Assembly (NCBI GenBank): GCA_964432675.1 | Contig: CAYSOG010000006.1 | Location: 1,824 to 65,823, forward strand | Origin: an uncultured Gammaproteobacteria bacterium | GTDB lineage: Bacteria; Patescibacteriota; Microgenomatia; CAYSOG01 | Length of the DNA stretch: 64,000 nucleotides | Reading direction: 5' to 3' | Shown here: in pieces, positions 47,094-64,000 of the stretch | How the letters are laid out: every line of letters begins with the position of its first letter | Numbering within the stretch: the first letter of the stretch is position 1 | Translations under genes and position numbers: made by a program | Notes under the pieces: model-generated | What the model was told of the DNA's origin: nothing | The model's input: only the letters and a program-made list of their open reading frames with translations | The model's database searches: none

Positions 47094-47109
47094 GGTATCA
47101 TTTTATTAA

Positions 47110-47557: not shown

Positions 47558-47661
47558 AGTTTCTATCTCCTGTCTCTTCTTTTCAGACTAACGAATATGC
47601 GATTAAGATACTACTGTCAGAAAAGCCTAAAGCTTTGTTAATGGATAAATTCTATAAAGTG

Positions 47662-48249
47662 CTAGATCCAGCCCTTTTTGTAGAAATAAAGCCTTGCTAA
47701 AATTTCATATACAATATTCCGCCAGTGGCCTCGAGTTTGCCAGTGCAGTGAGTTGGGATCGTATGGCACGCCAAAAGTATTGGCAGCGAATACTTCGCTA
47801 AATCCAAGCTTTTTCGTGGTCCAGACTGCCCGAACCATTTGGTCTGGATGCGCAACAATCAAGGCAGTATTCCACCCTCGGTAGCGACAAAGGCTTAATG
47901 CACGCTCTCCTATTTCATGGGTATTCGGTTCTTTGCGGGCAAACATCGATCTTCGTACATTTAACGAGACCTGCCGACGCAAGCCATATGGCAGACAATC
48001 AACAAGTTGCTCTTGCAAGATAAAAGGGATATTGTAGCCTTGGTGTAGCTCAACGGCAATTGCGGCCAACCGCTCGTTTGCTGGGCTTGAACCGTCTTTC
48101 CTTAAACCGCTCGCAAAGCCAATGATAACCTTTGCCCCAGCCTGCGTTGCTGTAAGGCTGGGCTTCATATGCCAGGTAAAAATACAGCGCCAGATCTTAA
48201 TTAGGTCCAAACCGGCACCCCTTTGTTGAGGATTTTGTAAACGTGCCAA
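47662..48249 (-). CDS. Hypothetical protein (195 aa; possibly DUF218/YdcF-like)
   Basis: ORF with globular composition. The family assignment is a guess. Confidence 0.4.
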   Translation of the reverse strand: MARLQNPQQRGAGLDLIKIWRCIFTWHMKPSLTATQAGAKVIIGFASGLRKDGSSPANERLAAIAVELHQGYNIPFILQEQLVDCLPYGLRRQVSLNVRRSMFARKEPNTHEIGERALSLCRYRGWNTALIVAHPDQMVRAVWTTKKLGFSEVFAANTFGVPYDPNSLHWQTRGHWRNIVYEILARLYFYKKGWI

Positions 48250-48310
48250 GATACTTGGAAATTGCTTTTCCTTTCAATACCCAAATATCTTTTGGATGGT
48301 GAAAGGAAAA

Positions 48311-48336
48311 GCGGAGGGCCAATTTAGGCCCTCCGC
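48311..48336 (-). terminator. Perfect 10-bp hairpin GCGGAGGGCC/GGCCCTCCGC at the left edge of the high-GC segment
   Basis: Followed on the minus strand by TTTTCCTTTC. Confidence 0.5.
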
Positions 48337-48528
48337 GATTAGATACTACAGATGCAGCGTTGCGGCAACACGGCCGGCAAAAAAACCGCAATGGTAGCCG
48401 ATTGAATAACCAAAGGCATGTGCCCGCTGATGGACGCGCAACCGAAAGGTTGGGTCGATAAGCTTTGCGGCAAAGTGCCTTACGATAGAGCTTCTCATTG
48501 GCGTTTCTCCTTTACGCTTTTGCGAAAC

Positions 48529-48987
48529 TTATTCGGTAAGAGCAACCGCGGCGGCCGCAGGGCCACTACTCGGCCGATGCGGCACAGGCGAACCAAAAGG
48601 ACCGTCGCCACCATCATCGAGTCGAGTTGGCCCGCTTTCCCCCGGCGAATTTGGCGGAGCAGGAATTTGGTCGAACGCAATCTTCAATGCTACGGATATG
48701 CTAAACTCTTGCTCACACGCTTCACAGGTTGCCAGATGGGCATAAAAAGCCTGATAGTCATGTTCCCTACGATGGCTTCGACCGTCGGCAAAGATTTCTG
48801 TCATGGCTTCCATGAGCCAACGCGCCTGTTGGTGTGTTGCCGGCTGCCAATTAAATAGTTGGGCCTGCAATATTCGCCAGCGCCGAATACAAATGGGACA
48901 CTTTACAATATGGTCGTCGAGAAGTTCGATATTGTACCTTATGTGAAATTCCTGCTGAGGGCAAAAATCGAAACCTTGTCTTGCCAT
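48529..48987 (-). CDS. Zinc-finger protein with zf-HC2-like motif (anti-sigma-factor-like) and Pro/Gly-rich tail
   Basis: 'CPICIRRW' plus 'HLATCEAC' (H-x3-C-x2-C). Confidence 0.45.
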   Translation of the reverse strand: MARQGFDFCPQQEFHIRYNIELLDDHIVKCPICIRRWRILQAQLFNWQPATHQQARWLMEAMTEIFADGRSHRREHDYQAFYAHLATCEACEQEFSISVALKIAFDQIPAPPNSPGESGPTRLDDGGDGPFGSPVPHRPSSGPAAAAVALTE

Positions 48988-49188
48988 GGGCTTGTCTTCT
49001 CCCTGCTACTTGTCGCTGCTGTAGAAATTAAAGTGCTTATAGTACTAGCTCAACCTTTATTCGTAGGGTTAAACTATGGACATTATAACAGAGAGACACT
49101 CTTGGGTCAATAACTATAGGATGTAAAATCTTGCAATGCAACAGTTGTAGCCTGAAACATTGTAAAAGATAGATGGTAATTTTCCATA

Positions 49189-49223
49189 GAAAAAGGGCGG
49201 TTGTCTTGTAAGACAACCGCCCT
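49189..49223 (-). terminator. Rho-independent terminator (GGGCGGTTGTCTT-gta-AGACAACCGCCC) for the high-GC gene
   Basis: Perfect 12-13-bp stem with a T5 run on the minus strand. Confidence 0.65.
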
Positions 49224-49273
49224 GGGTTGGTGTCCGCCATGGTGGCGAACGGGTTTCGTTGAACGGGCCGAGG

Positions 49274-50050
49274 CTATCCGCGACCGCCGCGCTGGCGGTT
49301 TCTGTACTCGGCGTCGCGAGCCGATCTCTCGGCTTGCTGCTGGCGCCGCTCCGGTGGCGCACCCCGGTGGTTGCGCGGGTCTGTGGCCCGGCAGTCTCGG
49401 AGATGCGTGGCCAGTAGCGGGAGCAGCCGGCGAATCTCGGCCTGCTTGGGCCTGCTCTTGGTGGCGCCGTCGATTTCCTCCTGGCTAAGCCAGGGAAACT
49501 CCGACTGCTCGATCTTCTCGACATTTCTGAGAAGGGCGAGCGCGCCAATCAGAAGCAGCTGCTGCGGCTTTCGCATGAGCCCCGCCTCCTCGGCGAGGTT
49601 CTCGAAATGCGGGAGATACGTATCCCGCTGGGCCGACATGCAGGCCAAGAAGAGCTGCCAAGCGGCCTCGCGCGCCGCGGCGTAATCCGGTTCGAGGTCG
49701 TCCAGGATCATATCCCGGATCCGCTCCAGTTCCGCCTTGAGTTCGACCCGGCGTGGCTCGGCGATCCCATCCCAGCCGGTAGCAAATTGCGCGGTCTGGA
49801 ACTGCCGCCGGGCGGCCTCGTCGATCGGGATCCGCGGCTGATGCTGCTGGTCGGTGCCGGACTGCTCGTCGGTAGCGCAACCGAGAGACTTGCTGGCCTC
49901 GCGGATGACCCGGTCGATGGTCCCCTCCACGGGGGTCTCGGTGACGGTCTGGTCGGCGGTCTCGACGACGGTCTGGTCGGCGGTCTCGACGACGGGCTTC
50001 TGGTCGGCGGTGGCTTCGGTGCTATCAACGGTCTTGGCGGTCTTGGTCAT
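49274..50050 (-). CDS. High-GC hypothetical protein with tandem 8-aa repeats (start at 'MTKTAK')
   Basis: Protein-like frame among several GC-driven overlapping ORFs. N-terminal VETADQTV repeats and a helical C-terminal domain. Own terminator. Confidence 0.5.
   Translation of the reverse strand: MTKTAKTVDSTEATADQKPVVETADQTVVETADQTVTETPVEGTIDRVIREASKSLGCATDEQSGTDQQHQPRIPIDEAARRQFQTAQFATGWDGIAEPRRVELKAELERIRDMILDDLEPDYAAAREAAWQLFLACMSAQRDTYLPHFENLAEEAGLMRKPQQLLLIGALALLRNVEKIEQSEFPWLSQEEIDGATKSRPKQAEIRRLLPLLATHLRDCRATDPRNHRGAPPERRQQQAERSARDAEYRNRQRGGRG
49946..50014. repeat. Tandem direct repeat, 24-nt unit GGTCTGGTCGGCGGTCTCGACGAC x2 plus a partial third copy
   Basis: Read directly from the sequence. 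Encodes the VETADQTV repeats of the 49274 gene. Confidence 0.8.
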
Positions 50051-50197
50051 CTGGCCTTCTCCTGTACAATGAACCTGGCAACACGTGCTAAACGGTAGCA
50101 CACCGCGCCCAAAATGGGCGAAAGACTCTTGCCACAGTTTCATCCGGAGGCCCACGGGCCCGCCGAAAAAAACTAACAAGCCGATGACTGGGCGCCG

Positions 50198-50425
50198 TCA
50201 AAACGACGGCGCCTCCGACATGAACTCAAGGAACTTGCGGTCCGCTTCGGTAAGGACTGGGTCGACAAAAAGCCGACCATTGTCCTTTCCACAGCGGGGC
50301 AATGTCCCTCGGGTCGCCGGCGCCTCGGCCGCAGAAAGCCCACCTTCGTGGACCTTACCGCAGCTCAGGCAGGTTACGTCGAATTCCGTTGTGTTCGGAA
50401 TCACCGGTCTTGCCGCAACTACCAT
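50198..50425 (-). CDS. Small Cys-containing protein (75 aa), high GC
   Basis: 'CLSCGKVHEGG...PRCGKDNG' putative zinc-ribbon. Confidence 0.4.
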   Translation of the reverse strand: MVVAARPVIPNTTEFDVTCLSCGKVHEGGLSAAEAPATRGTLPRCGKDNGRLFVDPVLTEADRKFLEFMSEAPSF

Positions 50426-50894
50426 GTATTCCTCCTAAAAACTAGCCTCTCCGCTGAGGCTTCCATTACAAGGACTTACCATTCGTAAATCCCGATAATA
50501 GAAACCTCACCGTTTTAGCGTTGCTTAAAGGAAGTATTGTTCAACGATAATAATAGTAATGTGCAAATGCTTTTGGGTTTTTACGCCCTCAAGCGTTTGT
50601 TTGCAATTTGCGGCAAAAATAATTCGCAAATCCAAACAATTGTTGTGAAGTATATCACACTACAGGCCTTTTGTCAAGTATCTATAGGTCATACTATATA
50701 AATGTATAACCCTGCATAGATGCTATACACGCCATGTGTACCAGGATCAATAAAAGACATATGCCCTACTTCGCCGGACTACTTATACCATATGTATATA
50801 TAACTATAAGTTATGTATAGGCATTGCCTAGACACAGATTTCTGCATATTGTCATCCTGGCTTAATTGCATTATTTATGTTAGATAAAGCCAAT

Positions 50895-50931
50895 AAAAAA
50901 GGGCCGCGGTATTCATACCGCGGCCCAAAAA
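50895..50931. terminator. Bidirectional terminator GGGCCGCGGTA-ttca-TACCGCGGCCC flanked by A/T runs, downstream of the helicase
   Basis: Perfect 11-bp stem. A6 upstream and A5 downstream on the plus strand. Confidence 0.7.
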
Positions 50932-50972
50932 CCCTTGCAGTTTATATTGGTACTGCAAAAACGACAAATAGC

Positions 50973-53939
50973 CTACTTAGCGGAAGGCTGTACCGCTTTT
51001 TGGTACACTTCCCGCAACAGGCCAATCTTCTTTACTTTGTGGCCGCTTTTAAGGCCCTCTTGGTTAACAAATCCCCAATACGTCTTCCCCCTTTCAGGCG
51101 TTGCCACTTCCGAAGCGGTGGCATCGAATTCGAAAAGCATGCCGTATGAAATTTCATCAATCGGCACAACCTTGTCGCCTTCGAACTGGTACTGCCCCGC
51201 TCCCGGCCAATGTTCGGCGTGGAACTGCGCAAGCCATGCGTCGTATTCGGCCTGCTTTTCCGCTTCCTCTTGGGCCAAGAGCTCAGCAAATTCGCGATCG
51301 AACTGCTCCTGTTTCCGTTGCAACAGCGCTTGCTCCAACCGAACCTGTTCGGCTTCGGCAGCAGCTTGCCGCCTTCGCGATAGCTCTTGCGCTTCAGCCT
51401 GCATCCGAGCCAGTTGAGCTTCTCGCTGCGCTTGCAGCGCCACTTCGCGGTTTGCTTCATAGGTTGGCCGGTTAGTGTCGATGAACTCGCTGGCAGCCGA
51501 AAGTCGCATCTCAGCGTCGGCCGGCCACTGCTCATCGAGCACCTTCAGTCGAAGGGCTTCAAGATCTTGGTAAAACGTGTAAGCCCTTTGGTCATCTTCA
51601 GCAAGTCCCCACATCGCCAAATCATTGCGAATTAACCACAGCACACCAGTAATACTATCAATCAAAGCCAGCTGGCTTCGCTGCGCTTCGGTTTGGTAAC
51701 GCCAGCGTTCCGATTCCGGAACTTCATCGCGCGTACACAAAACTTCCTCATATGCCACTTCTTGGCCAAGCACTGTAGTCGTGCGAGATTTGGTCCATTC
51801 TACCCGCATAAAACCGGGGGGTTTTGGATTGCCCTCGCGAACACTGACCATATGCGGGGCAACTTCAAGCAGCCACTCGACCTCGACTTTTTGGCAGCCA
51901 CGGGCAAAATTGCGTTTGCCTTTTGGCGTTGTGACACCTTGAATACCAGCACAGACAATAATCTGCGGTGGCGTATGAAACAACACGCTATCACGCGAAA
52001 TATACAACGCGGTGTCTTCCTCACGCGACAATGACCAAATGCTACGCGGCTTGGCGCCGGCCCAGGTGTAGCTGAACCTGCCATTTGAAACGGCCAAGTT
52101 CTGCATTAAACCAGCTGCCACTGCCTTGCCGATCACCGCAACTTGGCTCTTTTCGGTGTCAGTTAGTTCCCAACGGTCGACTGCCTTTTGGTAGCCTACC
52201 GATGTGACCTCGATCCCCATCAGCATAATAATATCCATAAGTTGCCGACGGATTTTGAGGATTTCATCAAGGCTTCGATGGTTCAAAAAGTGGTCACGTG
52301 CCCAATCATGGTCATAACCCGCGTCTGCGTATTCGTTCATGACGTTTAATACGGTTAGGAAATCGCTGTCATGAACAGACAAGCGTTGCCGCCACATGTC
52401 TGCATCAGCTTCATGGTCACGCGGCCTGGTAAAAAGCCGGTTGACCGAAAGGCTTGCGGCAATGGTGCAGATTTCTGCAATACAGCCATGCTTTTCGGCT
52501 TCCAAGATCATACGGCCGATGGTTGGTTCAACTGGTAGTTTTGCCAATTGCTGGCCGACATCGGTCAACGTATTATCAGCGTCAACCGCCCCAAGTGCCC
52601 GAAGTGTTTCAAGTGCGTTATGGAGCGCTTGCTTTGGCGGCGAGTCGATGAACTCGAACTCCTCGACATCAGTAATGCCAAGGCTCAGCATCTTCAACAC
52701 CACACTCGACAGTTCGCTGCGCACAATCTCGGGTACGGTAAACTCATCTGCATGGTCATACTCGGCCTCTGTAATAAGCCGGTAACAGTTGCCTTCATCG
52801 GTCCGCCCTGCCCGGCCGGCACGTTGGCCCATACCAGACTTCGAATGCAATATGGTCTGCAAGCTGCTAATGCCGCTGTGCGGATCAAACTGCATTTGGC
52901 GGATAAGGCATGAGTCGACCACATCAACCGCAGTTTGCGGTGTGATAGATGTTTCAAGCACGTTGGTGCCGATAATCACCCGACGGCGGTTTGAAGGAAT
53001 AAAGACGCGCTGCTGTTCGTCCGGGCTCATGTCGCCATGAACTGGAATAAGCTCGGCGTCGATATTAAGCCGTTCGAGAAATTCAATTGTCTTATTAATC
53101 CAGGCAAGGCCCGGCATAAAGACCATGATATCCCGTTTGGCTCTTTGGCTGGCAATAATTTGACTTACTTTGTATGCCGCCAGTGCTTCAACCGGAACCG
53201 GTTTGTCCGGATCGATTAGCCCCAGGAACTGGTCTCGAGCCTTATGATGTTCGCCCGGCTGAAGGTAATGGACCGTGACGGGAAACTGTTTCCCAACAAC
53301 CTGGATGATTGGCGCATTGTCGAAAAACGCCGAGAACTTTTCGGCATTAATGGTGGCCGACATGATAATAAGTTTCAAGTCAGGCCGCAACCGTAATGCT
53401 CGCTTCGCCAGGCCAATGGCAAAATCAGTATCGACGTTGCGTTCGTGCGCTTCGTCGAACCCGATAATGCCGTATTGATAGAACCCTTGGTCATGAATGG
53501 CTTCCTGAAGCAGGATACCATCGGTCATAAACTTAATTTTCGTGCCAACGCTTGTTTCATCGTCGAAGCGAATTTGGTAGCCGACTTCGTTGCCAATCCT
53601 ACTACCTAGCTGCCTGGCGACAAATTGGGCAACGGTAATTGCCGCAATGCGCCTGGGCTGGGTGATGCCAATCCTGCCAGTTTGAAGCATGTCTGCGTTG
53701 TACAGGAATTGTGGAACCTGGGTTGTCTTACCGCTGCCAGTTTCGGCAACCAAGATGGTTACCTGGTTCTGCCGAATGGCCTCGACAATTTCGTCTTTGT
53801 GCTGGCCAACGGGCAATTGAAGGTTCACGTTTTCGTTCCTCACGAGCAGGGGCCCTGGCGTTGCCAGGAATTGCCCACCCTGCTCCGACCACTTTTTCAG
53901 GTCTTGTCCGAAGTCTTTCCGTAAAGGGCAACGGACCAT
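50973..53939 (-). CDS. DEAH-box ATP-dependent helicase, HrpA/HrpB-like, with C-terminal OB/coiled-coil extension
   Basis: 'VAETGSGKTTQVPQF' (motif I), 'GFDEAHER' (DEAH) and helicase-associated HA2/OB-like region. Long Gln/Ala/Glu-rich coiled coil near the C-terminus. Confidence 0.85.
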   Translation of the reverse strand: MVRCPLRKDFGQDLKKWSEQGGQFLATPGPLLVRNENVNLQLPVGQHKDEIVEAIRQNQVTILVAETGSGKTTQVPQFLYNADMLQTGRIGITQPRRIAAITVAQFVARQLGSRIGNEVGYQIRFDDETSVGTKIKFMTDGILLQEAIHDQGFYQYGIIGFDEAHERNVDTDFAIGLAKRALRLRPDLKLIIMSATINAEKFSAFFDNAPIIQVVGKQFPVTVHYLQPGEHHKARDQFLGLIDPDKPVPVEALAAYKVSQIIASQRAKRDIMVFMPGLAWINKTIEFLERLNIDAELIPVHGDMSPDEQQRVFIPSNRRRVIIGTNVLETSITPQTAVDVVDSCLIRQMQFDPHSGISSLQTILHSKSGMGQRAGRAGRTDEGNCYRLITEAEYDHADEFTVPEIVRSELSSVVLKMLSLGITDVEEFEFIDSPPKQALHNALETLRALGAVDADNTLTDVGQQLAKLPVEPTIGRMILEAEKHGCIAEICTIAASLSVNRLFTRPRDHEADADMWRQRLSVHDSDFLTVLNVMNEYADAGYDHDWARDHFLNHRSLDEILKIRRQLMDIIMLMGIEVTSVGYQKAVDRWELTDTEKSQVAVIGKAVAAGLMQNLAVSNGRFSYTWAGAKPRSIWSLSREEDTALYISRDSVLFHTPPQIIVCAGIQGVTTPKGKRNFARGCQKVEVEWLLEVAPHMVSVREGNPKPPGFMRVEWTKSRTTTVLGQEVAYEEVLCTRDEVPESERWRYQTEAQRSQLALIDSITGVLWLIRNDLAMWGLAEDDQRAYTFYQDLEALRLKVLDEQWPADAEMRLSAASEFIDTNRPTYEANREVALQAQREAQLARMQAEAQELSRRRQAAAEAEQVRLEQALLQRKQEQFDREFAELLAQEEAEKQAEYDAWLAQFHAEHWPGAGQYQFEGDKVVPIDEISYGMLFEFDATASEVATPERGKTYWGFVNQEGLKSGHKVKKIGLLREVYQKAVQPSAK

Positions 53940-54106
53940 TTGGTTGAGCAGGGCTGCTCGATTACAGAACCGATCGGGCGCTAATTTTTAATAGCCCATC
54001 AGCTTTTTTCCTTTCTTTTTATTTTCATTGCTTGTTAAGGTACATTTGGAAGCTAAACTTCCCTAAAACTCACTTTCGCCTTTATATAGAGCGACAATGA
54101 GCTTGA

Positions 54107-54138
54107 GGAAAGCCACGTCTGTGTAAACCAGACGTGGC
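54107..54138 (-). terminator. Hairpin GCCACGTCTG-tgtaaac-CAGACGTGGC downstream of the 54152 gene
   Basis: Perfect 10-bp stem. Separates the helicase from the ORFan array. Confidence 0.5.
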
Positions 54139-54151
54139 GAAAAATGTCTAT

Positions 54152-54751
54152 CTACTGATTGATGTTAACACCCAGTTGGGCTTCTGCTGGCACGCCTTGT
54201 GCCAAGAGCGCCTGAAGGTATTCCGAACTCGGCAGTTTGTTGATATATTCGGCGAACTTAGCCGGGTACTCCCGACGCGCCCGTTCATACAGGATTTCAA
54301 TGACCCGAGAATCGACAAGCCCATTAAGGTAGTTCCGGCCTGGAGTAAATGGTGCCTGCCGATGGTTTCGCTTGACGAGCTGTCGAGCACCCTGGTCAAA
54401 GTGCTTCACAACATACGCCCGCATGATAGCAACGTATTGGCCGCCTTCCATGTTTGGCAACGGAACCAAAAGGTACCGGTCTGCAATGCGGAGTGCATGG
54501 GCATAGTCCGCATCAAGTCGCAACCTATTGATTAGCTGCTTGCGTTCAACCAACGACTCAGCGAACGGTCGCCGTAAAGCTATGACTGGACCATAGTTCA
54601 GCCGCCTGTTCAGCCACAATAGCTGCCGCCCGAACCAGCGATTTACCCATCGAAACTTCCACCGAAGGGCGAATGAGGCAATGATAAGGAAAAAGGCGAA
54701 AACCGCCATTACGGTCAACACCTGCCCAAAGACTGTTACTACTTCTTCCAT
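54152..54751 (-). CDS. Hypothetical membrane-anchored protein (199 aa)
   Basis: N-terminal TM helix. Arg-rich. Confidence 0.45.
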   Translation of the reverse strand: MEEVVTVFGQVLTVMAVFAFFLIIASFALRWKFRWVNRWFGRQLLWLNRRLNYGPVIALRRPFAESLVERKQLINRLRLDADYAHALRIADRYLLVPLPNMEGGQYVAIMRAYVVKHFDQGARQLVKRNHRQAPFTPGRNYLNGLVDSRVIEILYERARREYPAKFAEYINKLPSSEYLQALLAQGVPAEAQLGVNINQ

Positions 54752-54781
54752 CTGCTCTCCCCTTTCTCTTGCTTGGTAAGG

Positions 54782-55561
54782 TTACGCCGGCACCGGGTCT
54801 GCGAGCCGAACAAGGCGAAAATTAAACCCTTTGCCGTAGGGCGTCGCATGCAAAACTATTCGGGAACGAGCTGGTATGGAACTATGCGGGTCGATCGACA
54901 CCCAAAATGCGGCGGTAAACAATCTAGAATGTTCCTTGAAATAGAGTAGTCGATTATGAATGTAAGACGCTACCTCCGGATCACCTTCGATATTATCTCT
55001 CTCAATAACAACAAAGGCTTGGCCGTTACCACCTGGATAGTAGTAATAGTTATTATCAACAGAAACTGTCACTTCACGAACGCACTTGCGTTCGATCAAT
55101 TCCACCGCCCGACCGTGCCCGATGGACATATATTGCAGTTCACCGTGTAGCATTACCGGTTCTATAAAGTCTTCAGGGCACCTGCCCTCACTAACGCGCA
55201 TAATGCATCCACTTTCCACAATGAAGTCGCAGTATTGCGCGATATAGGAAATCGGGAGATGGTCGTTTGCTATTTGGCATGTTAGGCCCATTTTCCTTGC
55301 TCGAACCTCACCTACTAATTCCATGCAGCCTGAATTTTCAGAGAGGACGACAAAGAGCTCATCGTCATAAAGCTCATGGGATATGTACTGAAGCTGCTCT
55401 CCGGATAAATCACCAGCTCCGAGAAATTCACCCTTCTCATTGAACCATCGTCCCCGCGAAATCCAGGGGTCAGAGCGTTCAACTTGTCCGCCTCGTAAGC
55501 CGAACAAGCCTGCTGCTCCTATATTCAGACCGCTATACATACCTTTGACAAGACGGGACAT
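54782..55561 (-). CDS. Hypothetical protein (about 260 aa from 'MSRLVKG'; ORF extends to 55720)
   Basis: AGGAGG RBS 6 nt upstream of the ATG at 55559-55561. Contains 'NYYYYPGGNG'. Confidence 0.45.
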   Translation of the reverse strand: MSRLVKGMYSGLNIGAAGLFGLRGGQVERSDPWISRGRWFNEKGEFLGAGDLSGEQLQYISHELYDDELFVVLSENSGCMELVGEVRARKMGLTCQIANDHLPISYIAQYCDFIVESGCIMRVSEGRCPEDFIEPVMLHGELQYMSIGHGRAVELIERKCVREVTVSVDNNYYYYPGGNGQAFVVIERDNIEGDPEVASYIHNRLLYFKEHSRLFTAAFWVSIDPHSSIPARSRIVLHATPYGKGFNFRLVRLADPVPA

Positions 55562-55942: not shown

Positions 55943-56274
55943 CGAATATCGCCGCTTGGCGCAAGTGAGTTGATGTAGGTTGCAATCGTAAGGAGCGCAG
56001 TATTAATGGGTACGGAATGGTTGCTTCTTACTATGCATGCTTCGGACAACGTGTTCAATATTGTTTTTTGTTGAACAGCATTCAATTTGGTATCGAGATT
56101 ATTGCAAAGCCCAAGGAGATTTGACGTAATTAAACTTCCAAGGTCTTCTAATGTTCCAAGTTGTGCAACCGCTCTAATATTCGGGAACAACTCCCCAGCC
56201 CTGGAAATTATATTCCCTAATTCTTGAGCAAATTCTCGAACCGTCATAGGTTCATTAGCGAGTTTCTGGACCAT
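55939..56274 (-). CDS. Hypothetical protein (111 aa), possible HTH
   Basis: Strong RBS AAAAAGGAGG. 'MTVREFAQELG' helix-turn-helix-like segment. Confidence 0.4.
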   Translation of the reverse strand: MVQKLANEPMTVREFAQELGNIISRAGELFPNIRAVAQLGTLEDLGSLITSNLLGLCNNLDTKLNAVQQKTILNTLSEACIVRSNHSVPINTALLTIATYINSLAPSGDIR

Positions 56275-56418
56275 TTTTCCTCCTTTTTGTTCCGCTTCGT
56301 TTTTCTGTAGGTATTTGAATGTGCAATTTGAAGCATACCGCTTCCTGAAACCCTCTAGGCTGCTGGCCTAAAAAGTTTGAGGAATGGGCGGGACGGCTTT
56401 TTAAGCCGTCCCGCAAAT

Positions 56419-56670
56419 TTACAGGTTAGATAATACTTGTTGCGCCCTTACGTCGGGGCAGCATGTTAAAAGGTACAGCACATATTTCTGGCCTCTGTGC
56501 CATGTACGCTTACTTTTTGGCCAAAGGCCTTGTTCGCGAGCTTTGTCGTAGTACGCAGCCACTACTTCGACCATGGCGATGATCTGCTCCCTCTTTTCAG
56601 GATGGAGCAAGATCCAGCTTTTGACGAAGTCAACGACATCGTTCAATGTTTTAACTTGCGGTTGTTCCAT
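56419..56670 (-). CDS. Hypothetical protein (83 aa)
   Basis: ORF in a co-directional array. Confidence 0.4.
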   Translation of the reverse strand: MEQPQVKTLNDVVDFVKSWILLHPEKREQIIAMVEVVAAYYDKAREQGLWPKSKRTWHRGQKYVLYLLTCCPDVRAQQVLSNL

Positions 56671-56687
56671 TGGCTTATTTCCTTGGC

Positions 56688-57155
56688 TTAGGATGAAAAG
56701 TCCTCTGGTTCTGAAATCCGCAGGCTATACAACGGCCGGGGATTGCCATCGCTCAGCTTAAAACGGCGAAAGAGCGTGTAAAGTGCCGGCAAATCGTAAT
56801 CGCCTTGCTGGTAGCGCGCATAGCGCGTTGCAATTGTATTACCGTCTGCCTTAACAACCGTCACCACGAGGGCATCGGTGAACCGGTCGACATGGATACG
56901 ATACTCACCACCTAGACGTTCTTCGCCCGGTAGGTTATCATTGACAATAATCGATAAGAGCCCCTCGCAGTCGACATAACGCAAGGTTTTTGCGTCGAAG
57001 ACTTCGCAACGACTGCCGAGATAAACCCCGTATCGCCGTTCTTCTTCCTTAATAACCTCGTAGGCCGTGTCAAATATAAGTTTGCCAAACAAGATTTCGG
57101 CAAACTTGCCTTTGGCCACCATCTGTTCAGTTTCGAGTGCTACCGGTGTTACCAC
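56688..57155 (-). CDS. Hypothetical protein (155 aa)
   Basis: ORF in a co-directional array. Confidence 0.45.
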   Translation of the reverse strand: MVTPVALETEQMVAKGKFAEILFGKLIFDTAYEVIKEEERRYGVYLGSRCEVFDAKTLRYVDCEGLLSIIVNDNLPGEERLGGEYRIHVDRFTDALVVTVVKADGNTIATRYARYQQGDYDLPALYTLFRRFKLSDGNPRPLYSLRISEPEDFSS

Positions 57156-57158
57156 CTT

Positions 57159-57512
57159 TTACCTCCGTGATGCATGGTTGTTTAAGCGAGACAATATTGG
57201 TGCAATCCACCATGGCAACGGTTCATGTTGCAACCTGTCAACCCAGCTGGCAATCGCCCAAAGGGTTGCGATCACAATGACAAACATGCTGACTGCAACT
57301 GCAAGGTTTGTTCCCGCCGGACCCGGCGTTATAGATGTTAGGCGCCAGTGCAAAAGGTGCGTTACACCTTCATATGCCACTATAATGCCAATATTGATAC
57401 AACCTGCTAATAGTATGACAAGCTGGAACCTCTTGAACCCAAAGACTAGCCGGATAATTATCATACAAAAGATGACGCTGATCGTTATGATTACACCCAA
57501 AAGATACTGCAT
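57159..57512 (-). CDS. Hypothetical polytopic membrane protein (117 aa)
   Basis: Three or four hydrophobic helices. Confidence 0.45.
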   Translation of the reverse strand: MQYLLGVIITISVIFCMIIIRLVFGFKRFQLVILLAGCINIGIIVAYEGVTHLLHWRLTSITPGPAGTNLAVAVSMFVIVIATLWAIASWVDRLQHEPLPWWIAPILSRLNNHASRR

Positions 57513-57706
57513 GACTGCCTCCGTTTGCGCTTCCTGAGCTTTTAACCTGTAATGGTAAGGTGCGATATGATGAAGTCAAAATGGAAAACGATTGCTCGTT
57601 CACTTTCATTTTAACTTCTTCCTGCAATTCTCAAATTTATTTTTGGGAATTATAGGAATGAGGCAGCGCCGAAACGGCGCTGCCCAAATGTACTCAAAAG
57701 AAAAGG

Positions 57707-58039
57707 TTAAGCAACAGCAGCTTGGATTATACCAATCCGCTGCCGGTGCGCCTCGATCCAAACCTTGCCAATCGCTTCAGCCAAGTCTATGACCGGACTG
57801 TAGTCAACATGCTGCTGCATGCGGCAATCGGTCAAGATTGCCGCTATGGTGTTGACAACGATATCTCCCGAGTAATCCTGGAGCGTGCCGTTGACCAACG
57901 CTTTCTGGTAGACTGCAAGGTTCTTGGCCGCCGAACTGATCCGGTTGGCCAATTTAACTTGACCAACTTGAGCCAATTCCTCCGCCCGGTTGAAAAGCCA
58001 GGCAAGGCCATTTTCGACAATCGCTTCTTCTACCTTCAC
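57707..58039 (-). CDS. Hypothetical protein (110 aa)
   Basis: ORF in a co-directional array. Confidence 0.4.
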   Translation of the reverse strand: MKVEEAIVENGLAWLFNRAEELAQVGQVKLANRISSAAKNLAVYQKALVNGTLQDYSGDIVVNTIAAILTDCRMQQHVDYSPVIDLAEAIGKVWIEAHRQRIGIIQAAVA

Positions 58040-58054
58040 ACTACTTCTCCTCTT

Positions 58055-58270
58055 CTAGATAAACTCGAGGTAGTACCGTGTTTTTTGGTCGCGGCGCTGC
58101 CGTTCTTCTTGGCATTCGCTGCAGTCATCCTGATGGACTGGCATGGCGTCGAGCTTACCACTCGCTGCTCGAGCTTTGCAGCGAGCCTCAAGTTTGCTGC
58201 CAGCCGTTGCCACCCAAACGTGACCATTTAAGCAAGCCACATTGTAGTGGACTTCGGTATTAGTGAGCAT
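58055..58270 (-). CDS. Small Cys/His-rich protein (about 71 aa from 'MLTNTEVHY')
   Basis: 'VACLNGH...CKAR...DDCSECQEE' putative zinc-binding. Confidence 0.35.
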   Translation of the reverse strand: MLTNTEVHYNVACLNGHVWVATAGSKLEARCKARAASGKLDAMPVHQDDCSECQEERQRRDQKTRYYLEFI

Positions 58271-58271
58271 C

Positions 58272-58646
58272 TTACCTACTCCTTGTAACTTGTGCATCTT
58301 GCATTGCTTCTCGGGCCAGCTGGTCGAGTTGTCGATACCACCCCGATGGACGTTCAGTTGCCCAGTTAATTGGATTAACGCCATCGTGCAAACGAATGTC
58401 TGCTGTCAGCACTTTGCGCTTTTGGCTTTCATATTCTTCGTAATCCAGCCCACGCAAGCTAATCGTGCTATACAGCGCTTCGCCGTATTCGAGCATGGTA
58501 ATGCCACCAGCTTCATCGTAAAAAACCTCGGAACTGGTATTATCGAGATAATACCAAGCATCCAAGAGTCTCGTATCGTCCATTGCCTGAAGACGAATTT
58601 CAAGCCGTTGGAATGCCAATCGACGATTTTCTGCAGTTATAGTCAC
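58272..58646 (-). CDS. Hypothetical protein (124 aa)
   Basis: ORF in a co-directional array. Confidence 0.45.
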   Translation of the reverse strand: MTITAENRRLAFQRLEIRLQAMDDTRLLDAWYYLDNTSSEVFYDEAGGITMLEYGEALYSTISLRGLDYEEYESQKRKVLTADIRLHDGVNPINWATERPSGWYRQLDQLAREAMQDAQVTRSR

Positions 58647-58665
58647 TTGCTACTCCTTCTTAGCA

Positions 58666-59061
58666 CTACCAGTCTTTAAAGGCAGCGGGAACTTCCGGCC
58701 CCCGGGGCTTGCTCGGGTCGAAGAAAACGACTCGCGTTGGCAGGTAGCGAACAACCTCAGCGTTTGGTAAGTCTTTTACCTGCGCGTACGCTTCGATCCA
58801 CCATCCAGCCTCTGTCTGCTCGCGATAAACGAATTCAACTTTTTGCACCCATTCATGAGCCTCTTGTGGACCCATACTCCGCAAACCTCGAACAACCATC
58901 ATGCGGATTTCAGACCGGCACCACCTGCCATTCGTCAGGGCATAGTTCGCCTCGACAGTTAACTTCGGCAAGTCCCGGTCGTTATAAGCAGCAAACCCAA
59001 AGCCATCAGTTTTCCAGTCATCCGCTTCTTTCTTCCCAAGCCACCTGAGGAAACCAAACAT
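58666..59061 (-). CDS. Hypothetical protein (131 aa), first gene of the minus array
   Basis: AAAAGGAGA RBS. Trp-rich. Confidence 0.45.
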   Translation of the reverse strand: MFGFLRWLGKKEADDWKTDGFGFAAYNDRDLPKLTVEANYALTNGRWCRSEIRMMVVRGLRSMGPQEAHEWVQKVEFVYREQTEAGWWIEAYAQVKDLPNAEVVRYLPTRVVFFDPSKPRGPEVPAAFKDW

Positions 59062-60316
59062 GGCATGTGTCTCCTTTTCTTTTTCGTTAATGTGCGATCC
59101 TTCATTGCCTATTTTCTCAAAGGCAATTATGAGAAGGAAAATTAGCAGACAATGGCTTATCTGCTTACTTTCTCTCTCAATAGCCGACTTCTATAACTTG
59201 CCGTCGGATATGCTAAGCCAAAGAAAAACCAGCTCTTTTTGCGGCTGTCCAAATACAAAATTAGCTAATTTGGGCAGGTGCATTTGAAACATGAGCATAT
59301 AAGCTGGCTGTTTCTTCAGTCGATAAAAATGAAGTGCTATATACCTAAGTATATGTTACAAACGTTTTCCGTTTTCGTGGAAGTATAACATACTATAAGC
59401 TTAAAGTCAAATCTGGGAGGCGCACTACATATTTACTAAACCTGGGTGTTACCACGCGATGTCTATGCAGTAGGTAGACATGATAAGGCAAAATGAGCCA
59501 CAGGGTCTGCTTTCTTATACTTAAACTCATAGTTTAAAGTTGCTATATATAATAGTGTAGCTATTGCAGCTAATTGCCTGTATATCCTTTGCTAGAATTG
59601 TTCATCTTGACAGACTTATAGTTATATGATACACTGCGCCCTACATCGTTTGGCGAAGCAATCACCAGACGATAAGCAATCGCACATTTTAAGAAACCAG
59701 AAAAGCTTAACATACCAGCTTTCAAGTCAAAACCTTTATTTCCTGCCATAGGGGTTCGTAGTACTTCCAACGTACTCCCCTTTTGACAGACAGCTGGTTT
59801 TTTGTTTTTCTTTGTCATTCTGGCAGACGAAGTCGAGACCAGGACCTTTTTGAAACCAAAGGAAACGTTTAGGTCTATGGTCGGAATGACAATATATTGT
59901 GGTGGTAAGCGAGCGCACAATCTGCTCTGTATCGTATCCGATACACCAAAAGGTTTTAAACCTTGTACTGGATACACCAATACGACATGTATTGTGGGCT
60001 CACTTTCCATCCCAAACTTTCTTAGCGGCGCTAAGTGCCGCAACAAAGTTACAAGATGGATCAAAAACCTTACAACGAACTTTCACAATCTACAGTTGAA
60101 AACCTTTAAAGATGCTTTTATTGGCGTCGAAAAGCGGCTTAAAACATTGTCATTCTGAACGGATACGAAGTGTAGTGAAGAATCTACCACGGTCGGATTA
60201 GCAAGCCAGGTAGAAGATCCCTCTCTAATCACTCGGGATGACAACCTGTTTGAGTTTCTTTTCGGCGTCAATAAGCAGCAACGGCGTTTAAAAAGCGTCA
60301 AGATGGAAGGAAAATC
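59062..60316. promoter_or_regulatory. 1.25-kb non-coding divergent control region with direct repeats, palindromes and stacked hairpins
   Basis: No protein-like ORF. TTGACA-17-TACACT at 59607-59635. Repeats TTGTCATTCTG...ACGAAGT at 59812 and 60147. The 16-mer TTCACAATCTACAGTT at 60082. Palindrome CTTAGCGGCGCTAAG at 60021-60035. Hairpins at 59929-59994. Confidence 0.5.
60082..60097 (+). repeat. 16-mer TTCACAATCTACAGTT, copy 1
   Basis: Exact repeat of the 16-mer at 61642-61657. Confidence 0.8.
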
Positions 60317-60652
60317 ATGGCAACGGCTACGATCGACCAACTGGCGAATGAAGTAATGATTGGGATCAGTGGCGTGCTTATGCACGACATCAGAACGACG
60401 GTTTCCGACGCTCGAGTATCGGGCGACCAACCGACGGAAGAAGGTGCATTTTCGACGCTCGACCACCTTGAGAAAATCCATCATGCGATCGTTGTTTTTT
60501 TGAGCTTTCCTGGCAGGCGCAGCCGCGAGCAAGCTGAGAATCTATCGGGGCTCCTTGAGGGTATGGAGGACTACTCCCCCCTCGAGCCAGTTAAGGATGC
60601 AGTCGTCGAGTTACGTAAGTCGTTGCTCGACCTGCTGGCAAACGCTTCATGA
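60317..60652 (+). CDS. Hypothetical protein (111 aa)
   Basis: First ORF of the plus-strand array. Confidence 0.4.
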   Translation: MATATIDQLANEVMIGISGVLMHDIRTTVSDARVSGDQPTEEGAFSTLDHLEKIHHAIVVFLSFPGRRSREQAENLSGLLEGMEDYSPLEPVKDAVVELRKSLLDLLANAS

Positions 60653-60846
60653 GCTCGACGTGAAGTATCCACCTCAGTAAAGAAAGGTTTTCGACGTAGA
60701 TTTTTTGAGTCCCCGTTCAGTTGCATGGACGGGGCTCTTCCTTAAGTCCTTAAACAATTTTGAGGATTGAAGGAAGAACTGATTAAAATAGTTCTTCAAG
60801 AACAGAAATCGCACTTTTAGAGCTGAAAACCAAAAAGGAGAGGTGG

Positions 60847-61182
60847 ATGACAGTCCAGCAGCAACTCACACACGCGCTCCATGACATGGTCATGGTGAGC
60901 CTTCGGGCGACGCCCGAGGAAGTCGAGTTTGGCCCGCCGTGCAGCTATCTCATCGAGAGCTGTATCAGGGCAGGGGTAGACACGGTTGCAAAAGATATAC
61001 TGTCAAACCGGCAAAGCGAGTTCCGCCTCAACGGCGCAGGACTCAAGCTCATTTCGAACTTGTACGGCACACCCGAAAACCCGCGGCTCACCTTGAGCGT
61101 TGGGGGCGACCAGGCGCATCACTATCCATCAACACTCCCCAAACTGCGACAAATCGTCCAAAACGCCGGCCTAGCCGGGTAA
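60847..61182 (+). CDS. Hypothetical protein (111 aa)
   Basis: RBS AAAAGGAGAGGTGG. A palindrome, GTTCTTCAAGAAC, lies 40 nt upstream. Confidence 0.45.
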   Translation: MTVQQQLTHALHDMVMVSLRATPEEVEFGPPCSYLIESCIRAGVDTVAKDILSNRQSEFRLNGAGLKLISNLYGTPENPRLTLSVGGDQAHHYPSTLPKLRQIVQNAGLAG

Positions 61183-61195
61183 AGAGGAGATAGAG

Positions 61196-61510
61196 TTGAG
61201 AAAGTTGACAAAGGCACAGCAGTTGCGGAAGGTCGCTTCGGACCTTGGCGTTGAAGTCAAGGTCGAGGCGGTCGTCCGCCCGTGGGGTGAGACAGATTAC
61301 GTCCTGGAATTCCAGGGCCACTCACCCCAGCCCGAGGTAACCTTTTCATTCATTGAGGCACTAGGCCTCATTTTTGATGAGGTGCCGGACCCCGCCGAAG
61401 GAACGTGTCCAACCTGCGAAAGCGATTGGAGTTGTCCGGTGCACCACACCGGCGACTACTCGCTCACAGGCGGTGACTTTTCAGCTGCCATAATCGCAGC
61501 AGTGTTGTAA
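61196..61510 (+). CDS. Hypothetical protein (104 aa) with a C-terminal Cys/His cluster
   Basis: 'CPTCESDWSCPVHH' putative zinc site. RBS GAGGAGA. Confidence 0.45.
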   Translation: MRKLTKAQQLRKVASDLGVEVKVEAVVRPWGETDYVLEFQGHSPQPEVTFSFIEALGLIFDEVPDPAEGTCPTCESDWSCPVHHTGDYSLTGGDFSAAIIAAVL

Positions 61511-61641
61511 GGAGGTTTTCAGCGTAGATATTGGGCGGCAGCCAACAAGCTGTCGCCCTCTTCCAAAAATCTTTTTTTGGCACATTGCCAAAAGAGGCAT
61601 TTTGGAAGAGCGAATAAGCTTTTCAAGAAACACTTTGTTCA

Positions 61642-61657
61642 TTCACAATCTACAGTT
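61642..61657 (+). repeat. 16-mer TTCACAATCTACAGTT, copy 2
   Basis: Exact copy of the 16-mer. A partial copy, AATCTACAGGTT, is near 63850. Confidence 0.8.
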
Positions 61658-61694
61658 ACTCTTCCGAAACCGGTAATTTGCCCGGGAAGGAAGC

Positions 61695-62195
61695 ATGAAG
61701 CAACAGGAGAAAATCGTGATGTCGTCGCGAACCAACCGGTCAAAGATCGTAACCAGCCCCGGTGCCCAGTTTCTGGCCAACCGAGGGGTTACATTGTGGC
61801 CATTCTTTAATGCCCGCACCCGGCATATCATTGACGTTGGGCAGTCCGCAGGTTCACCGCTGGTCTACACATCGGCAAGCTTCGACCCTAAAGAAGGGTC
61901 GGAATTTATGCTGACTTGCCATTGGCCAGATCGACACCTGTTGACACAGTTAGTCCGTCAGCAGCCCTACGGGCACTGGTACTTGGATATTTACGACACC
62001 AGCCGGCATGCAAGCCAACGAGCTGATTTAGTCGAGGAATGCCAGCTCATCGTACGCGATGAGTACGGACGAAGCGATGATGTGCCCTGGGATTACCAGG
62101 CGTGGAACGGCCCCGACTGGGACAATGCCGAAATCTATTATCTCGGCTGCCCCATCGTCCAACCCCCAGGCTTAATTGCACGGTTGCCAATCTAG
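61695..62195 (+). CDS. Hypothetical protein (166 aa)
   Basis: ORF preceded by the 16-mer repeat. Confidence 0.45.
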   Translation: MKQQEKIVMSSRTNRSKIVTSPGAQFLANRGVTLWPFFNARTRHIIDVGQSAGSPLVYTSASFDPKEGSEFMLTCHWPDRHLLTQLVRQQPYGHWYLDIYDTSRHASQRADLVEECQLIVRDEYGRSDDVPWDYQAWNGPDWDNAEIYYLGCPIVQPPGLIARLPI

Positions 62196-62224
62196 AGGCA
62201 AGAAACTAGCAAAGGAGACGCACA

Positions 62225-62572
62225 ATGGAAGGTCTAAGAGCAATAGTAATCTGTTTCGCTTCTCTCGTGGCATTCGTAACATGCTGCAAAGAGCTAGAGA
62301 AACGGGTTGACATGAGACTCCCCTTCGGCATTCTCATCGGGCTATATCACGGCTTCGCTGCGGCTTTGGTCTTCGCAACCTTTTTAGATCCGCAGAGCTG
62401 GATCGGTGCTGATAAGATGAATGTTGAAACGACGGTATTCACCGTCTTCGTGTCGTTGATCGTGAGCGCATTACCAATAGCGATCCTGTCGCTGCTTGGA
62501 TGCGGCTTATGCATGATCCTTTGGACGATACATCAAGCCAGGACCAGGCTGTCACAACTAGTCTCGTTCTGA
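62225..62572 (+). CDS. Hypothetical polytopic membrane protein (115 aa)
   Basis: RBS AAAGGAGA. Three or four TM helices. Confidence 0.45.
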   Translation: MEGLRAIVICFASLVAFVTCCKELEKRVDMRLPFGILIGLYHGFAAALVFATFLDPQSWIGADKMNVETTVFTVFVSLIVSALPIAILSLLGCGLCMILWTIHQARTRLSQLVSF

Positions 62573-62598
62573 GCAGAACATTCCAGGAGAGGTGAAAA

Positions 62599-62703
62599 AT
62601 GCCCCAAGATAATCTATATTCTGTACTTCTCAGCATCACAATGTGGCTCATAGCACTCGACCTGCTTGGAATAGCTGTCGTTTACAGCTTTGGAATACAT
62701 TAA
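62599..62703 (+). CDS. 34-aa hydrophobic peptide (not in the ORF track)
   Basis: GGAGAGGTG RBS 6 nt upstream of ATG. The peptide MPQDNLYSVLLSITMWLIALDLLGIAVVYSFGIH forms one TM helix. Confidence 0.3.
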   Translation: MPQDNLYSVLLSITMWLIALDLLGIAVVYSFGIH

Positions 62704-62747
62704 CTTCGGTAGCTGGGCCGTATAGCCCACAAAAAAGGAAGCGAAGA

Positions 62748-62879
62748 ATGGATCTTGTTGAGATTCTACGGCATCTCGGGACACTTTCGGACGCAGACTT
62801 GTTGAACGCGCTATTGTTTTCGGTGGCTGGGGTTGGCTATTCAGTTTTGATAATTGCCGGCCTCACCAGGCATCGGTAA
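62748..62879 (+). CDS. 43-aa small membrane peptide (ORF 62643-62879, likely start 'MDLVEIL')
   Basis: AGGAAG RBS. C-terminal TM helix. Confidence 0.35.
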   Translation: MDLVEILRHLGTLSDADLLNALLFSVAGVGYSVLIIAGLTRHR

Positions 62880-62892
62880 CTGTAGAAATCAT

Positions 62893-62936
62893 GTCCGCCC
62901 TTTACGTCTACCAGACGAAGGGCGGACCTTTCCTTA
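62893..62936 (+). terminator. Terminator GTCCGCCCTT...AAGGGCGGAC followed by CTTTCCTT
   Basis: 10-bp stem with an internal second stem. Followed by the further hairpins 62965-62985 and 63007-63028 (GGGAGGGAC-tttt-GTCCCTCCC). Confidence 0.55.
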
Positions 62937-63505
62937 ATGATTGAAGGCAACTTCAGCCATTTAGGAAGGGTGGTAACCACCTTTCATTAACAAATTTATA
63001 TAGGGCGGGAGGGACTTTTGTCCCTCCCCTACCCTGTTCTTTGCACATTAATACAGGTTTTAGTAATAGCCACCCGTTTCACCGCTTTATTGTGGAGGAG
63101 TTTTGCCACGCGAAAAATGGCAGGATTAATTTCTTCAGAATTAAGCGGTGAACAGGTAGCCGCTCGGCACACGAAGGAGTTGTGTTGGGAAGTAGCCTTC
63201 GCACGTCACAGGTCAATTGTCGGCAGGGACAGGCAAGGATCGCTTGCCACATCCACCAGTGCACTGGCTGCGGCAGGAGCATCAGTAACCCGCATGGCAC
63301 CTGCTCAGAGTCGTGCAAACGGCTCTGCGATAGGTGTAAGCACCCCGGTTTTCCTGCGGCAACTGTTTCTGCTACACAGCCAACTGATATAAGACAATCC
63401 AACCCGAGGTCGACTGGAAGGCCTGCTTCAATATTTACGCGCCTCTGATTGCTATCCGCCTGGGTATAATCTCCTACCAAGTCATCTTATTAGAAAGGAG
63501 GAAAA

Positions 63506-63697
63506 GTGGAAGAAGAGGTTTTTGAGGTTAAGTGCCTGAATTGCGGCCGTGTCGCCGGTGAAGTAACGGGCTCAGCGGCCAAGCGCATGGACAGGCCTCC
63601 CAAGTGTAGCCACTGCAACGGCAGGACACACTTGCAACCGCTTGCCAATGACGAACTGGCACTTGCCAGACATCGGCTCAAAGCCAGTATTGCTTAA
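63506..63697 (+). CDS. Zinc-ribbon mini-protein (63 aa, GTG start)
   Basis: 'CLNCGR...CSHCNG' CxxC-x-CxxC. AGGAGG RBS 8 nt upstream. TATAAT at 63461-63466. Confidence 0.5.
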   Translation: MEEEVFEVKCLNCGRVAGEVTGSAAKRMDRPPKCSHCNGRTHLQPLANDELALARHRLKASIA

Positions 63698-64000
63698 ACC
63701 AAATTTGTTCTCCGCCCTTTCCATTGTGGATTGGGCGGAGACACCTACTTTAAGAGGTAAAGTGTCGATATAACTTTTCTTGTGTCCACATTTTCCTTCT
63801 TAAAAGCCATGGATGGCAAGTAGAGTTGGAACAAAAATTTCGTACATTAATAATCTACAGGTTAAATAAAAACTGAAAGCTCCCCTAGTGGAGACAATTT
63901 ATCCTTCGAGCGATTAGGGAGAAGTTCGTCAATAGAATAGGTAGTCCCAGTAAAGTTCTCGCTTTGTGAGTACACGTCGCTCGAACAATAATATATCCAT

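Follow-up and report, generated by a model that had tools for sequence, protein, structure and literature searches.

A GC-rich, Shine-Dalgarno-led block of orphan genes is a candidate horizontally acquired island in a Patescibacteria-like chromosome

We analyzed a 64,000-nucleotide stretch (the window) of the metagenome-derived contig CAYSOG010000006.1, in which two unlike segments adjoin. The left 47 kb is ordinary bacterial chromosome and encodes DnaB, HisS, YchF, SSB, a Ctp-type protease, HtrA, TldD/PmbA, a KefC-like antiporter, and a tRNA-Leu. From about 48.3 kb to the end of the window lies a block of some 22 genes, nearly all of them orphans (ORFans), in which a large DEAH/RHA helicase is the only gene with a curated known family. 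We lean, with modest confidence, toward the reading that this segment of at least 15.7 kb is a genomic island that was acquired horizontally by a deep-branching Patescibacteria-like chromosome. A foreign origin is supported by four independent signals that change at the same place: the GC content, the k-mer profile, codon usage, and the use of ribosome-binding sites.

The host likely belongs to a deep, poorly sampled Patescibacteria-like lineage of the candidate phyla radiation (CPR), judging from one marker protein and the affinities of two island genes. The closest YchF found anywhere is 72% identical, and the best matches (62-72%) lie on metagenome contigs. Named YchF matches, at about 54-58% identity, mostly carry a Patescibacteria or CPR lineage label, and three carry other labels.

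We first compared base composition across the window in 1-kb steps. Mean GC content is 0.435 ± 0.022 (maximum 0.482) at 1-48 kb versus 0.497 ± 0.043 at 48-64 kb, an overall rise from 43.5% to 49.7% with a peak of 66%, and the host maximum is surpassed in 11 of the 16 windows on the right (Mann-Whitney p = 2.5e-7). Strand-symmetric tetranucleotide profiles correlate with that of the first 47 kb at 0.90-0.97 everywhere on the left and at 0.53-0.84 on the right. GC at third codon positions (GC3) is 0.55 in the island versus 0.40 in the host, and one island gene reaches 0.79. The initial annotation, made from the letters and open reading frames (ORFs) of this DNA, had described a compositional change that continues to the window end, and the shifts in GC, tetranucleotides, and codon usage confirm it. 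It had also put GC at 60-65% over 48.5-50.4 kb; this holds for 49.25-50.25 kb, to which values of 64-66% are limited, but 48.25-49.25 kb reaches only 45-52%.

Codon usage was scored gene by gene with a leave-one-out likelihood ratio, host-like versus island-like. Left of 48.25 kb, each of the 40 genes scores as host-like (31 of 31 core genes and 9 of 9 genes at 41.1-48.25 kb), whereas 17 of the 22 genes right of 48.5 kb are island-like. The final host-like gene ends at 48249, the gene at 48529-48987 scores about zero, and scores are clearly island-like from 49274. Composition, k-mers, codon usage, and translation start all switch within 48.25-49.3 kb, an interval that holds a terminator hairpin. 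The features at this boundary are as follows.

47258-48249, minus strand: two junction genes (99 aa; 168-195 aa), host-side by their positive (host-like) codon score, with no Pfam match.
48264-48336, minus strand: left boundary, a terminator hairpin at 48311-48336 and then directly a second hairpin with 22-nt arms at 48264-48312.

The hairpin at 48311-48336 sits at the left edge of the 48.3-49.3 kb interval of change. Nine of its 10 pairs are G-C and a T-run follows the stem on the minus strand, identifying it as an intrinsic terminator. A perfect 10-bp hairpin had been reported here as the left boundary; it exists, and codon usage switches within a few hundred bases of it. Of the range first given for the start of the block, 47.6-48.3 kb, the right-hand limit stands and the left-hand one does not, since the genes at 47258-48249 have host-like codon usage. 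Further left, back-to-back terminator hairpins at 47108-47175 and 47217-47252 lie between a convergent DUF378 gene (plus strand) and the 99-aa gene (minus strand), and they mark the end of leftward transcription arriving from the island side.

Translation initiation also differs between the two segments. With refined starts, a GGAGG-type Shine-Dalgarno (SD) site at the proper distance precedes 17 of 22 island genes (77%) but only 6 of 39 left-hand genes (15%; Fisher p = 3.4e-6), and two of those six form a tandem paralogous ORFan pair at 44.0-45.6 kb. A TATAAT-like -10 box ends 6-13 nt before the start codon in 8 of 39 host genes (6-8 nt in seven of them) versus none of 22 island genes. Such a box directly before the start codon is a signature of leaderless mRNAs. 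Host starts that follow this pattern of no SD site and a -10 box include those at 13454, 15050, 28293, 36935, 41138, and 46258, and three relatives of the host (loci L008-L010) are likewise SD-poor, with -10 boxes directly upstream. Because the island genes are SD-led and the host is SD-poor and partly of the leaderless type, the island genes evolved under another translation-initiation regime.

These contrasts bear on whether the block could be a native, fast-evolving, lineage-specific region, in which orphans reflect poor sampling of the lineage and not transfer. The host side, too, has genes without a Pfam family (34969-36171, 36168-36935, and 44009-45637), and the nearest sampled relative is distant, as seen from YchF. 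Moreover, both assignable island genes are typical CPR genes, and some island genes are host-like in codon usage. A native region should, however, share the mutational bias and initiation style of its host, and the GC3 values, the fall in tetranucleotide correlation, and the gap between 77% and 15% SD usage do not fit that expectation. We therefore give a native origin only a small probability.

The abruptness of the change raises another explanation, an assembly or binning chimera in which two CPR-like organisms were joined at or near the 48311-48336 hairpin and no island exists. Every signal shifts over a few hundred bases, a difference in SD usage of this kind would be expected of two separate genomes, and the block reaches the window end on a contig derived from a metagenome. 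The sole independent assembly found, from Logan (SRR9179560), contains 100% identical pieces covering 46966-48318, 48329-49341, and 54005-56344, and it breaks inside the boundary hairpin: one contig (L044) ends at 48318 and the other (L043) starts at 48329, inside the two hairpin arms and with a 10-nt gap between them. This break is symmetrical in the hairpin and could possibly reflect a loss of coverage where the stem is GC-rich, a polymorphism arising by loop inversion, or a genuine branch point. Against a chimera, each of the two Logan contigs at the junction keeps 100% identity with the window to its very end, with no sign of a different continuation, and both sides are present in the same run as similarly short contigs. 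The 26-nt hairpin is below typical assembly k-mers, no longer repeat lies at the junction, and the join falls in an intergenic terminator and not in a conserved gene or repeat. Host-like codon usage in several island genes also suggests some residence time in the host. We consider a chimera unlikely, though it is the most probable of the rival explanations and the main caveat on the island reading.

To describe the island itself, we counted 22 genes at 48.5-63.7 kb: the minus strand carries 16 (48529-59061) and the plus strand six or seven (60317-63697). Its features are listed below.

48529-48987, minus strand: Cys/His-rich small protein, 152 aa as the longest ORF or 94 aa in the public annotation, with its own promoter-like site at 49110-49082 (score 11/12).
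49274-50179, minus strand: GC-rich acidic ORFan with a GC3 of 0.79, probable start 50050 (258 aa), ending at a terminator at 49223-49194; no Pfam match.
50198-50425, minus strand: zinc-ribbon mini-protein, 75 aa, with a strong SD site and a near-consensus promoter at 50677-50649.
50973-53939, minus strand: DEAH/RHA RNA helicase, 988 aa, with an HrpA/Prp22/DHX8-like core at about residues 40-700; then a terminator at 50926-50901.
54152-54751, minus strand: ORFan of 199 aa with a hydrophobic N-terminal segment; no Pfam match and only a self-hit among 1.84e9 representative proteins.
54782-55561, minus strand: 259-aa protein, its N-terminal 130-160 aa in an unnamed, mainly CPR family (motif GWYN..GEKLGWGDLS), the C-terminal remainder unique.
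55757-59061, minus strand: ten tightly packed small ORFan genes (61-155 aa), with gaps of -4 to 195 nt and SD sites before 8 of 10.
57159-57512, minus strand: membrane protein, 117 aa, within the ten-gene array.
58055-58270, minus strand: Cys-rich mini-protein, 71 aa, within the ten-gene array.
59062-60316, no strand: AT-rich spacer, 1.25 kb and 40% GC, between two divergent gene blocks, with facing promoter-like sites at 59410-59382 (minus) and 59607-59635 (plus).
60317-62879, plus strand: six rightward ORFan genes (78-166 aa), with SD sites before 5 of 6.
63506-63697, plus strand: zinc-ribbon mini-protein, 63 aa, the last recognizable gene; then about 300 nt of AT-rich non-coding DNA to the window end.

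The island ORFs look like real genes, based on their excess over simulation (in 53.95-64 kb, 26 stretches of 100 aa or more run without a stop, versus 9.1 ± 2.8 in simulated sequence) and on the SD sites that most of them have. The island is organized as self-contained sigma-70-type units with strong terminators: the minus-strand units have the near-consensus promoters at 50677-50649 and 49110-49082, and the strong terminators proposed in the initial annotation were found at 50926-50901, 49223-49194, and 48336-48311. Many overlapping stop and start codons had also been described, but we found one true overlap (55939-55942), the other genes being packed with gaps of 1-30 nt. The two zinc-ribbon proteins at 50198-50425 and 63506-63697 are paralogues (BLASTP, 33% identity over 46 aa, E=7e-6) and therefore tie the two ends of the block together. 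Membrane or hydrophobic proteins close the rightward block (62225-62572, 62599-62703, and 62643-62879).

Several smaller features of the non-coding DNA were recorded. The 16-mer TTCACAATCTACAGTT occurs on the plus strand, exactly at 60082-60097 and 61642-61657 and with three mismatches at 63847-63862, in each case intergenic in the rightward block. It has four matches with at most three mismatches in the window versus 0.61 expected, a count reached in 0 of 100 shuffles, and it could be a promoter or operator element common to these sites. The 14-nt ACTTATAGTTATAT is found at 50798-50811 and 59614-59627, inside promoter-like sites of both AT-rich spacers and in the same orientation to the downstream genes; its recurrence is near chance expectation for AT-rich DNA. 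Most of the other repeats reported for the AT-rich spacers are no more frequent than chance would give. Rfam searches at permissive thresholds matched only terminator-like hairpins, all below gathering scores, and the ORFs inside the spacer at 59062-60316 gave no family match.

The gene at 49274-50179 has the most extreme composition in the window and the most strongly island-like codon score (-0.195 per codon). It contains three tandem 24-nt repeats at 49930-50001, within its 66% GC sequence, that encode a (V)VETADQT motif. This gene may represent a separate, later insertion within the island. The neighboring 94/152-aa protein at 48529 has an H-x3-C-x2-C motif (HLATCEAC) and matches Pfam zf-HC2 at E=0.022, weaker than the curated cut-off. 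The RsrA anti-sigma model of NCBIfam was also matched below its cut-off (E=5e-4), a match attributed to this protein on the strength of its motif and the Pfam result. Thus, the protein may contain a zinc-binding anti-sigma domain. No sigma-70 domain that would mark a partner extracytoplasmic function (ECF) sigma factor for 48529-48813 was detected by Pfam in any neighboring ORF.

The helicase at 50973-53939 matches the Pfam families DEAD, Helicase_C, HA2_N, HA2_C, and OB_NTP_bind, all five above cut-offs. It matches the NCBIfam model for HrpA (TIGR01967) at E=1e-148 and the PDB sequences of DHX16, Prp22, Prp43, and HrpA at E values of 1e-108 to 1e-118. Bacterial HrpA and eukaryotic Prp22/DHX8/DHX16 have the same full set of domains: RecA1-RecA2, winged helix, ratchet, and OB fold. 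Unlike HrpA, the island helicase does not have the long HrpA C-terminal region and instead carries an extension of its own, about 290 aa including a coiled coil, that only a few CPR homologues also have. Its best homologues are 48-52% identical, the named ones are all labelled Patescibacteria, and their chromosomal contexts are unrelated. The closest helicase locus (L011) has 53.5% GC, a GC3 of 0.59, and SD sites before 3 of 3 genes.

The second assignable gene encodes the 259-aa protein at 54782-55561. Its family, of about 150 aa, comprises about 200 representative clusters, with E values to the window protein of 1e-13 to 1e-5, and the window protein has all of the invariant family columns (F20, Q26, W39-x-N41, G44-E45, and G48-x-G50-D51-L52; alignments A2/A3). 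We found the family in 31 species genomes (L012-L042), of which 24 have CPR lineage names, 4 have other labels, and 3 have no label. Across 35 loci there is no conserved partner gene. In one Parcubacteria genome (L035), a family gene at 10001-10327 and a helicase homologue (38% identity) at 15055-16995 lie 5 kb apart, the sole co-occurrence in these loci. An AlphaFold model of the family domain is confident, with a predicted local distance difference test (pLDDT) score mostly of 73-95 and a disordered stretch at residues 81-100, and the fold has no match among PDB structures or BFVD viral models.

The same family is also present in four IMG/VR contigs. In a tailed-phage contig (L004), the family gene adjoins a tail-sheath gene, and a T4-like baseplate gene lies about 2.5 kb away. 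The other three (L005-L007; 318, 157, and 392 kb) carry the family gene, and L006 also has a Glu/Gln-tRNA synthetase and a DNA methylase. These three may represent huge phages or, alternatively, pieces of CPR genomes wrongly classed as viral.

We searched the remaining island proteins against Pfam, NCBIfam, PHROGs, PADLOC, and PDB sequences and found no match. A full HMMER search with the six largest ORFans, covering 1.84 billion representative proteins, recovered nothing beyond self-hits, the 259-aa family, and a single weak relative of the 131-aa protein. Self-hits alone were seen for the 155- and 124-aa members of the ten-gene array and for the 166-aa protein of the rightward block, and a scan of a genome collection with the 166-aa ORFan gave no match. 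The 131-aa protein of the array has one weak, distant family (P0183; loci L045/L046), with no neighbors in common with the island. A single-sequence structure model of the 155-aa ORFan was unusable (pLDDT 38). The claim that the block holds only ORFans besides the helicase is thus mostly upheld, the departures being the 259-aa family, the distant 131-aa family, and the weak anti-sigma likeness.

We next looked for the machinery of a mobile element, as the block had been proposed to be an integrated mobile or phage-like element. A prophage or integrative element, intact or active until recently, that runs on past the window end would account for the long one-strand arrays of packed small ORFans that diverge from an AT-rich region with facing promoters. 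In addition, the 259-aa family occurs in a genuine tailed-phage contig near sheath and baseplate genes, a relative has a serine-recombinase element right at ychF, showing that this neighborhood can take up elements, and prophages have been reported from several Patescibacteria lineages (PMC12455944). However, no capsid, terminase, portal, tail, repressor, replication initiator, or relaxase was found among the window proteins with Pfam and PHROGs, in line with the initial statement that no integrase, capsid, or terminase is visible. The 24 proteins searched had nothing in PHROGs beyond weak helicase or HNH similarity at E > 0.002. No match was obtained by tblastn of the ORFans against 50,697 GenBank phage records, by tblastn of the 17 smaller ORFans and the 259-aa protein against 72,556 plasmid records, or in IMG/VR single-protein scans with the helicase and the 312-aa protein. 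The phage-linked family is, moreover, overwhelmingly chromosomal in CPR genomes, where it has no conserved neighbors. The contig is 68,753 bp long, so at most 4.7 kb lies outside the window, too short a stretch for the missing phage modules unless the element runs off the contig end. On this evidence we consider a prophage or integrative element unlikely, and the phage-like reading of the initial annotation has no positive support in the window from the recombinase, structural, PHROG, PADLOC, phage, plasmid, or flanking-repeat searches.

A large helicase beside many small genes of no known family might also suggest an anti-phage defence island built around the helicase. PADLOC searches of the 24 proteins gave only weak similarity of the helicase to helicase models (RecD-like, GajB, and Cas3; E >= 2e-4), and the other 23 proteins match no PADLOC system protein. 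The helicase is a canonical DEAH/RHA protein whose CPR homologues lie in ordinary, unrelated chromosomal contexts, and no nuclease, methylase, or NTPase partner is present. We rejected this explanation on the PADLOC result and hold it to be very improbable.

Compared with what defines each class of element, the block has the deviant composition and codon usage of a genomic island, in a contiguous stretch above about 8-10 kb. Mobility genes and a tRNA or attachment (att) site insertion with direct repeats are missing within the window. Prophage hallmark genes, and an integrase or recombinase at one end with att repeats, are likewise missing there, and the similarity to known defence proteins is limited to generic helicase matches. 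An active or functional prophage, integrative and conjugative element, or defence system is not supported by the evidence here. The alternative offered in the initial annotation, a novel accessory island, fits, its foreign origin being backed by four concordant signals.

Several results weigh against an acquired island. No integrase, transposase, or conjugation gene was found in 24+ proteins with Pfam, NCBIfam, and PHROGs. Flanking or att-like direct repeats, which the initial annotation had suggested looking for, and iterons were searched at 46-64 kb, and only chance-level short repeats appeared, none longer than 31 nt or pairing with the 48.3-kb boundary. There is no tRNA target at the block, the sole tRNA in the window being the tRNA-Leu at 21653-21736. 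The right end of the block lies beyond the window, and the junction on the left is not independently bridged because both Logan contigs end inside the boundary hairpin. The block is a mosaic, in that 5 of its 22 genes are host-like or neutral in codon usage. The uniqueness of the 17 small ORFans is less secure, as it rests on Pfam, NCBIfam, PHROGs, PADLOC, PDB, and the phage and plasmid tblastn searches. Finally, the nearest relatives are too distant (YchF at most 72% identical) to display an empty site.

To place the island in its chromosomal setting, we compared the ychF neighborhood with those of the three relatives L008-L010. The gene order ychF-rpsF-ssb-rpsR-x-ctp-(rplI)-htrA...hisS is kept in the window and in all three. 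Only this side is syntenic; the opposite flank of ychF is different in each relative, and none has the island block, at YchF identities of only 62-72%. On the variable side, L008 has a sigma-70-domain protein and a DinB-family protein, and L009 has Fic/MazE and a Y1 transposase. In L010, whose YchF shows 62% identity, the segment at 8233-10044 holds a large serine recombinase together with an HTH_17 protein and about 12 ORFans; this array abuts and overlaps the 5' end of ychF (ychF at 10001) and looks like an element integrated at the equivalent neighborhood. The DUF378 gene at 46899-47093 has a homologue adjoining ychF in L008, so native DNA reaches at least 47.1 kb. Since the ychF flank differs in each relative, the island sits at the outer edge of a lineage-variable region. 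The tandem paralogous ORFans at 44009-44764 and 44861-45637 (minus strand; 38% identity, E=2e-50) lie in the same region. They have strong SD sites, host-like codons, and no Pfam family, and they may be an older acquisition within it.

The likely origin of an acquired island can be outlined from these observations. Both assignable genes are of CPR type, and the closest helicase locus resembles the island and not the host, which points to a GC-richer, SD-using CPR type as the donor. The donor would be another such organism, or a mobile element or phage circulating among such organisms. Arrival would have been by integration into the ychF-side region, which is rearranged in every known relative, and the mobilizing machinery would since have been lost or would lie outside the window. 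The genes carried would most likely be accessory ones tied to a niche or strain, among them the helicase for RNA remodelling and small proteins of membrane or regulatory type.

This case fits the already documented pattern of genomic islands in Patescibacteria. Compositional islands of the IslandViewer type, 2.7-45 kb long, were found in half of 125 Patescibacteria genomes; 40 islands exceeded 10 kb, those over 10 kb averaging 17.4 kb; most individual gene transfers occurred between Patescibacteria; and prophages were reported in several lineages (PMC12455944). Like those islands, the block described here is a multi-kb atypical segment of mostly hypothetical genes, within their size range and with a likely donor inside the same superphylum. 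Unlike them, it also shows a switch in SD usage, no visible mobility gene or tRNA target, and genes that are nearly all singletons in the collections searched. The block also resembles prophage remnants, "moron" genes, and early-gene regions in its short packed one-strand ORFans, its own promoters and terminators, and its divergence from an AT-rich control region. It differs from them in having no repressor or Cro-type helix-turn-helix protein, integrase, structural or packaging gene, PHROG membership, or similarity to deposited phages.

A further reading, to which we give a low probability, is that the block belongs to a type of CPR mobile element or virus not sampled so far, with a repertoire (the DEAH/RHA helicase and the CPR domain shared with phages included) that has no counterpart in phage, plasmid, or defence catalogues. 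If so, SD-led genes in a largely SD-independent host with leaderless-type starts would point to a host range across CPR lineages with different initiation habits.

As an acquired island, the block adds about 20 singleton genes and opens no long-standing question. The work also flags an uncharacterized protein family, mainly of CPR bacteria and shared with phages, whose confidently predicted fold resembles none known. Provided that the join is real, the locus would be a clean case of recent gene flow into a streamlined CPR genome, in which the acquired genes carry an initiation signal unlike that of the host's own genes. The presence of SD sites would then be a simple, assembly-independent marker of foreign DNA in SD-poor lineages, and it would raise the question of how efficiently SD-led genes are expressed in such a host.

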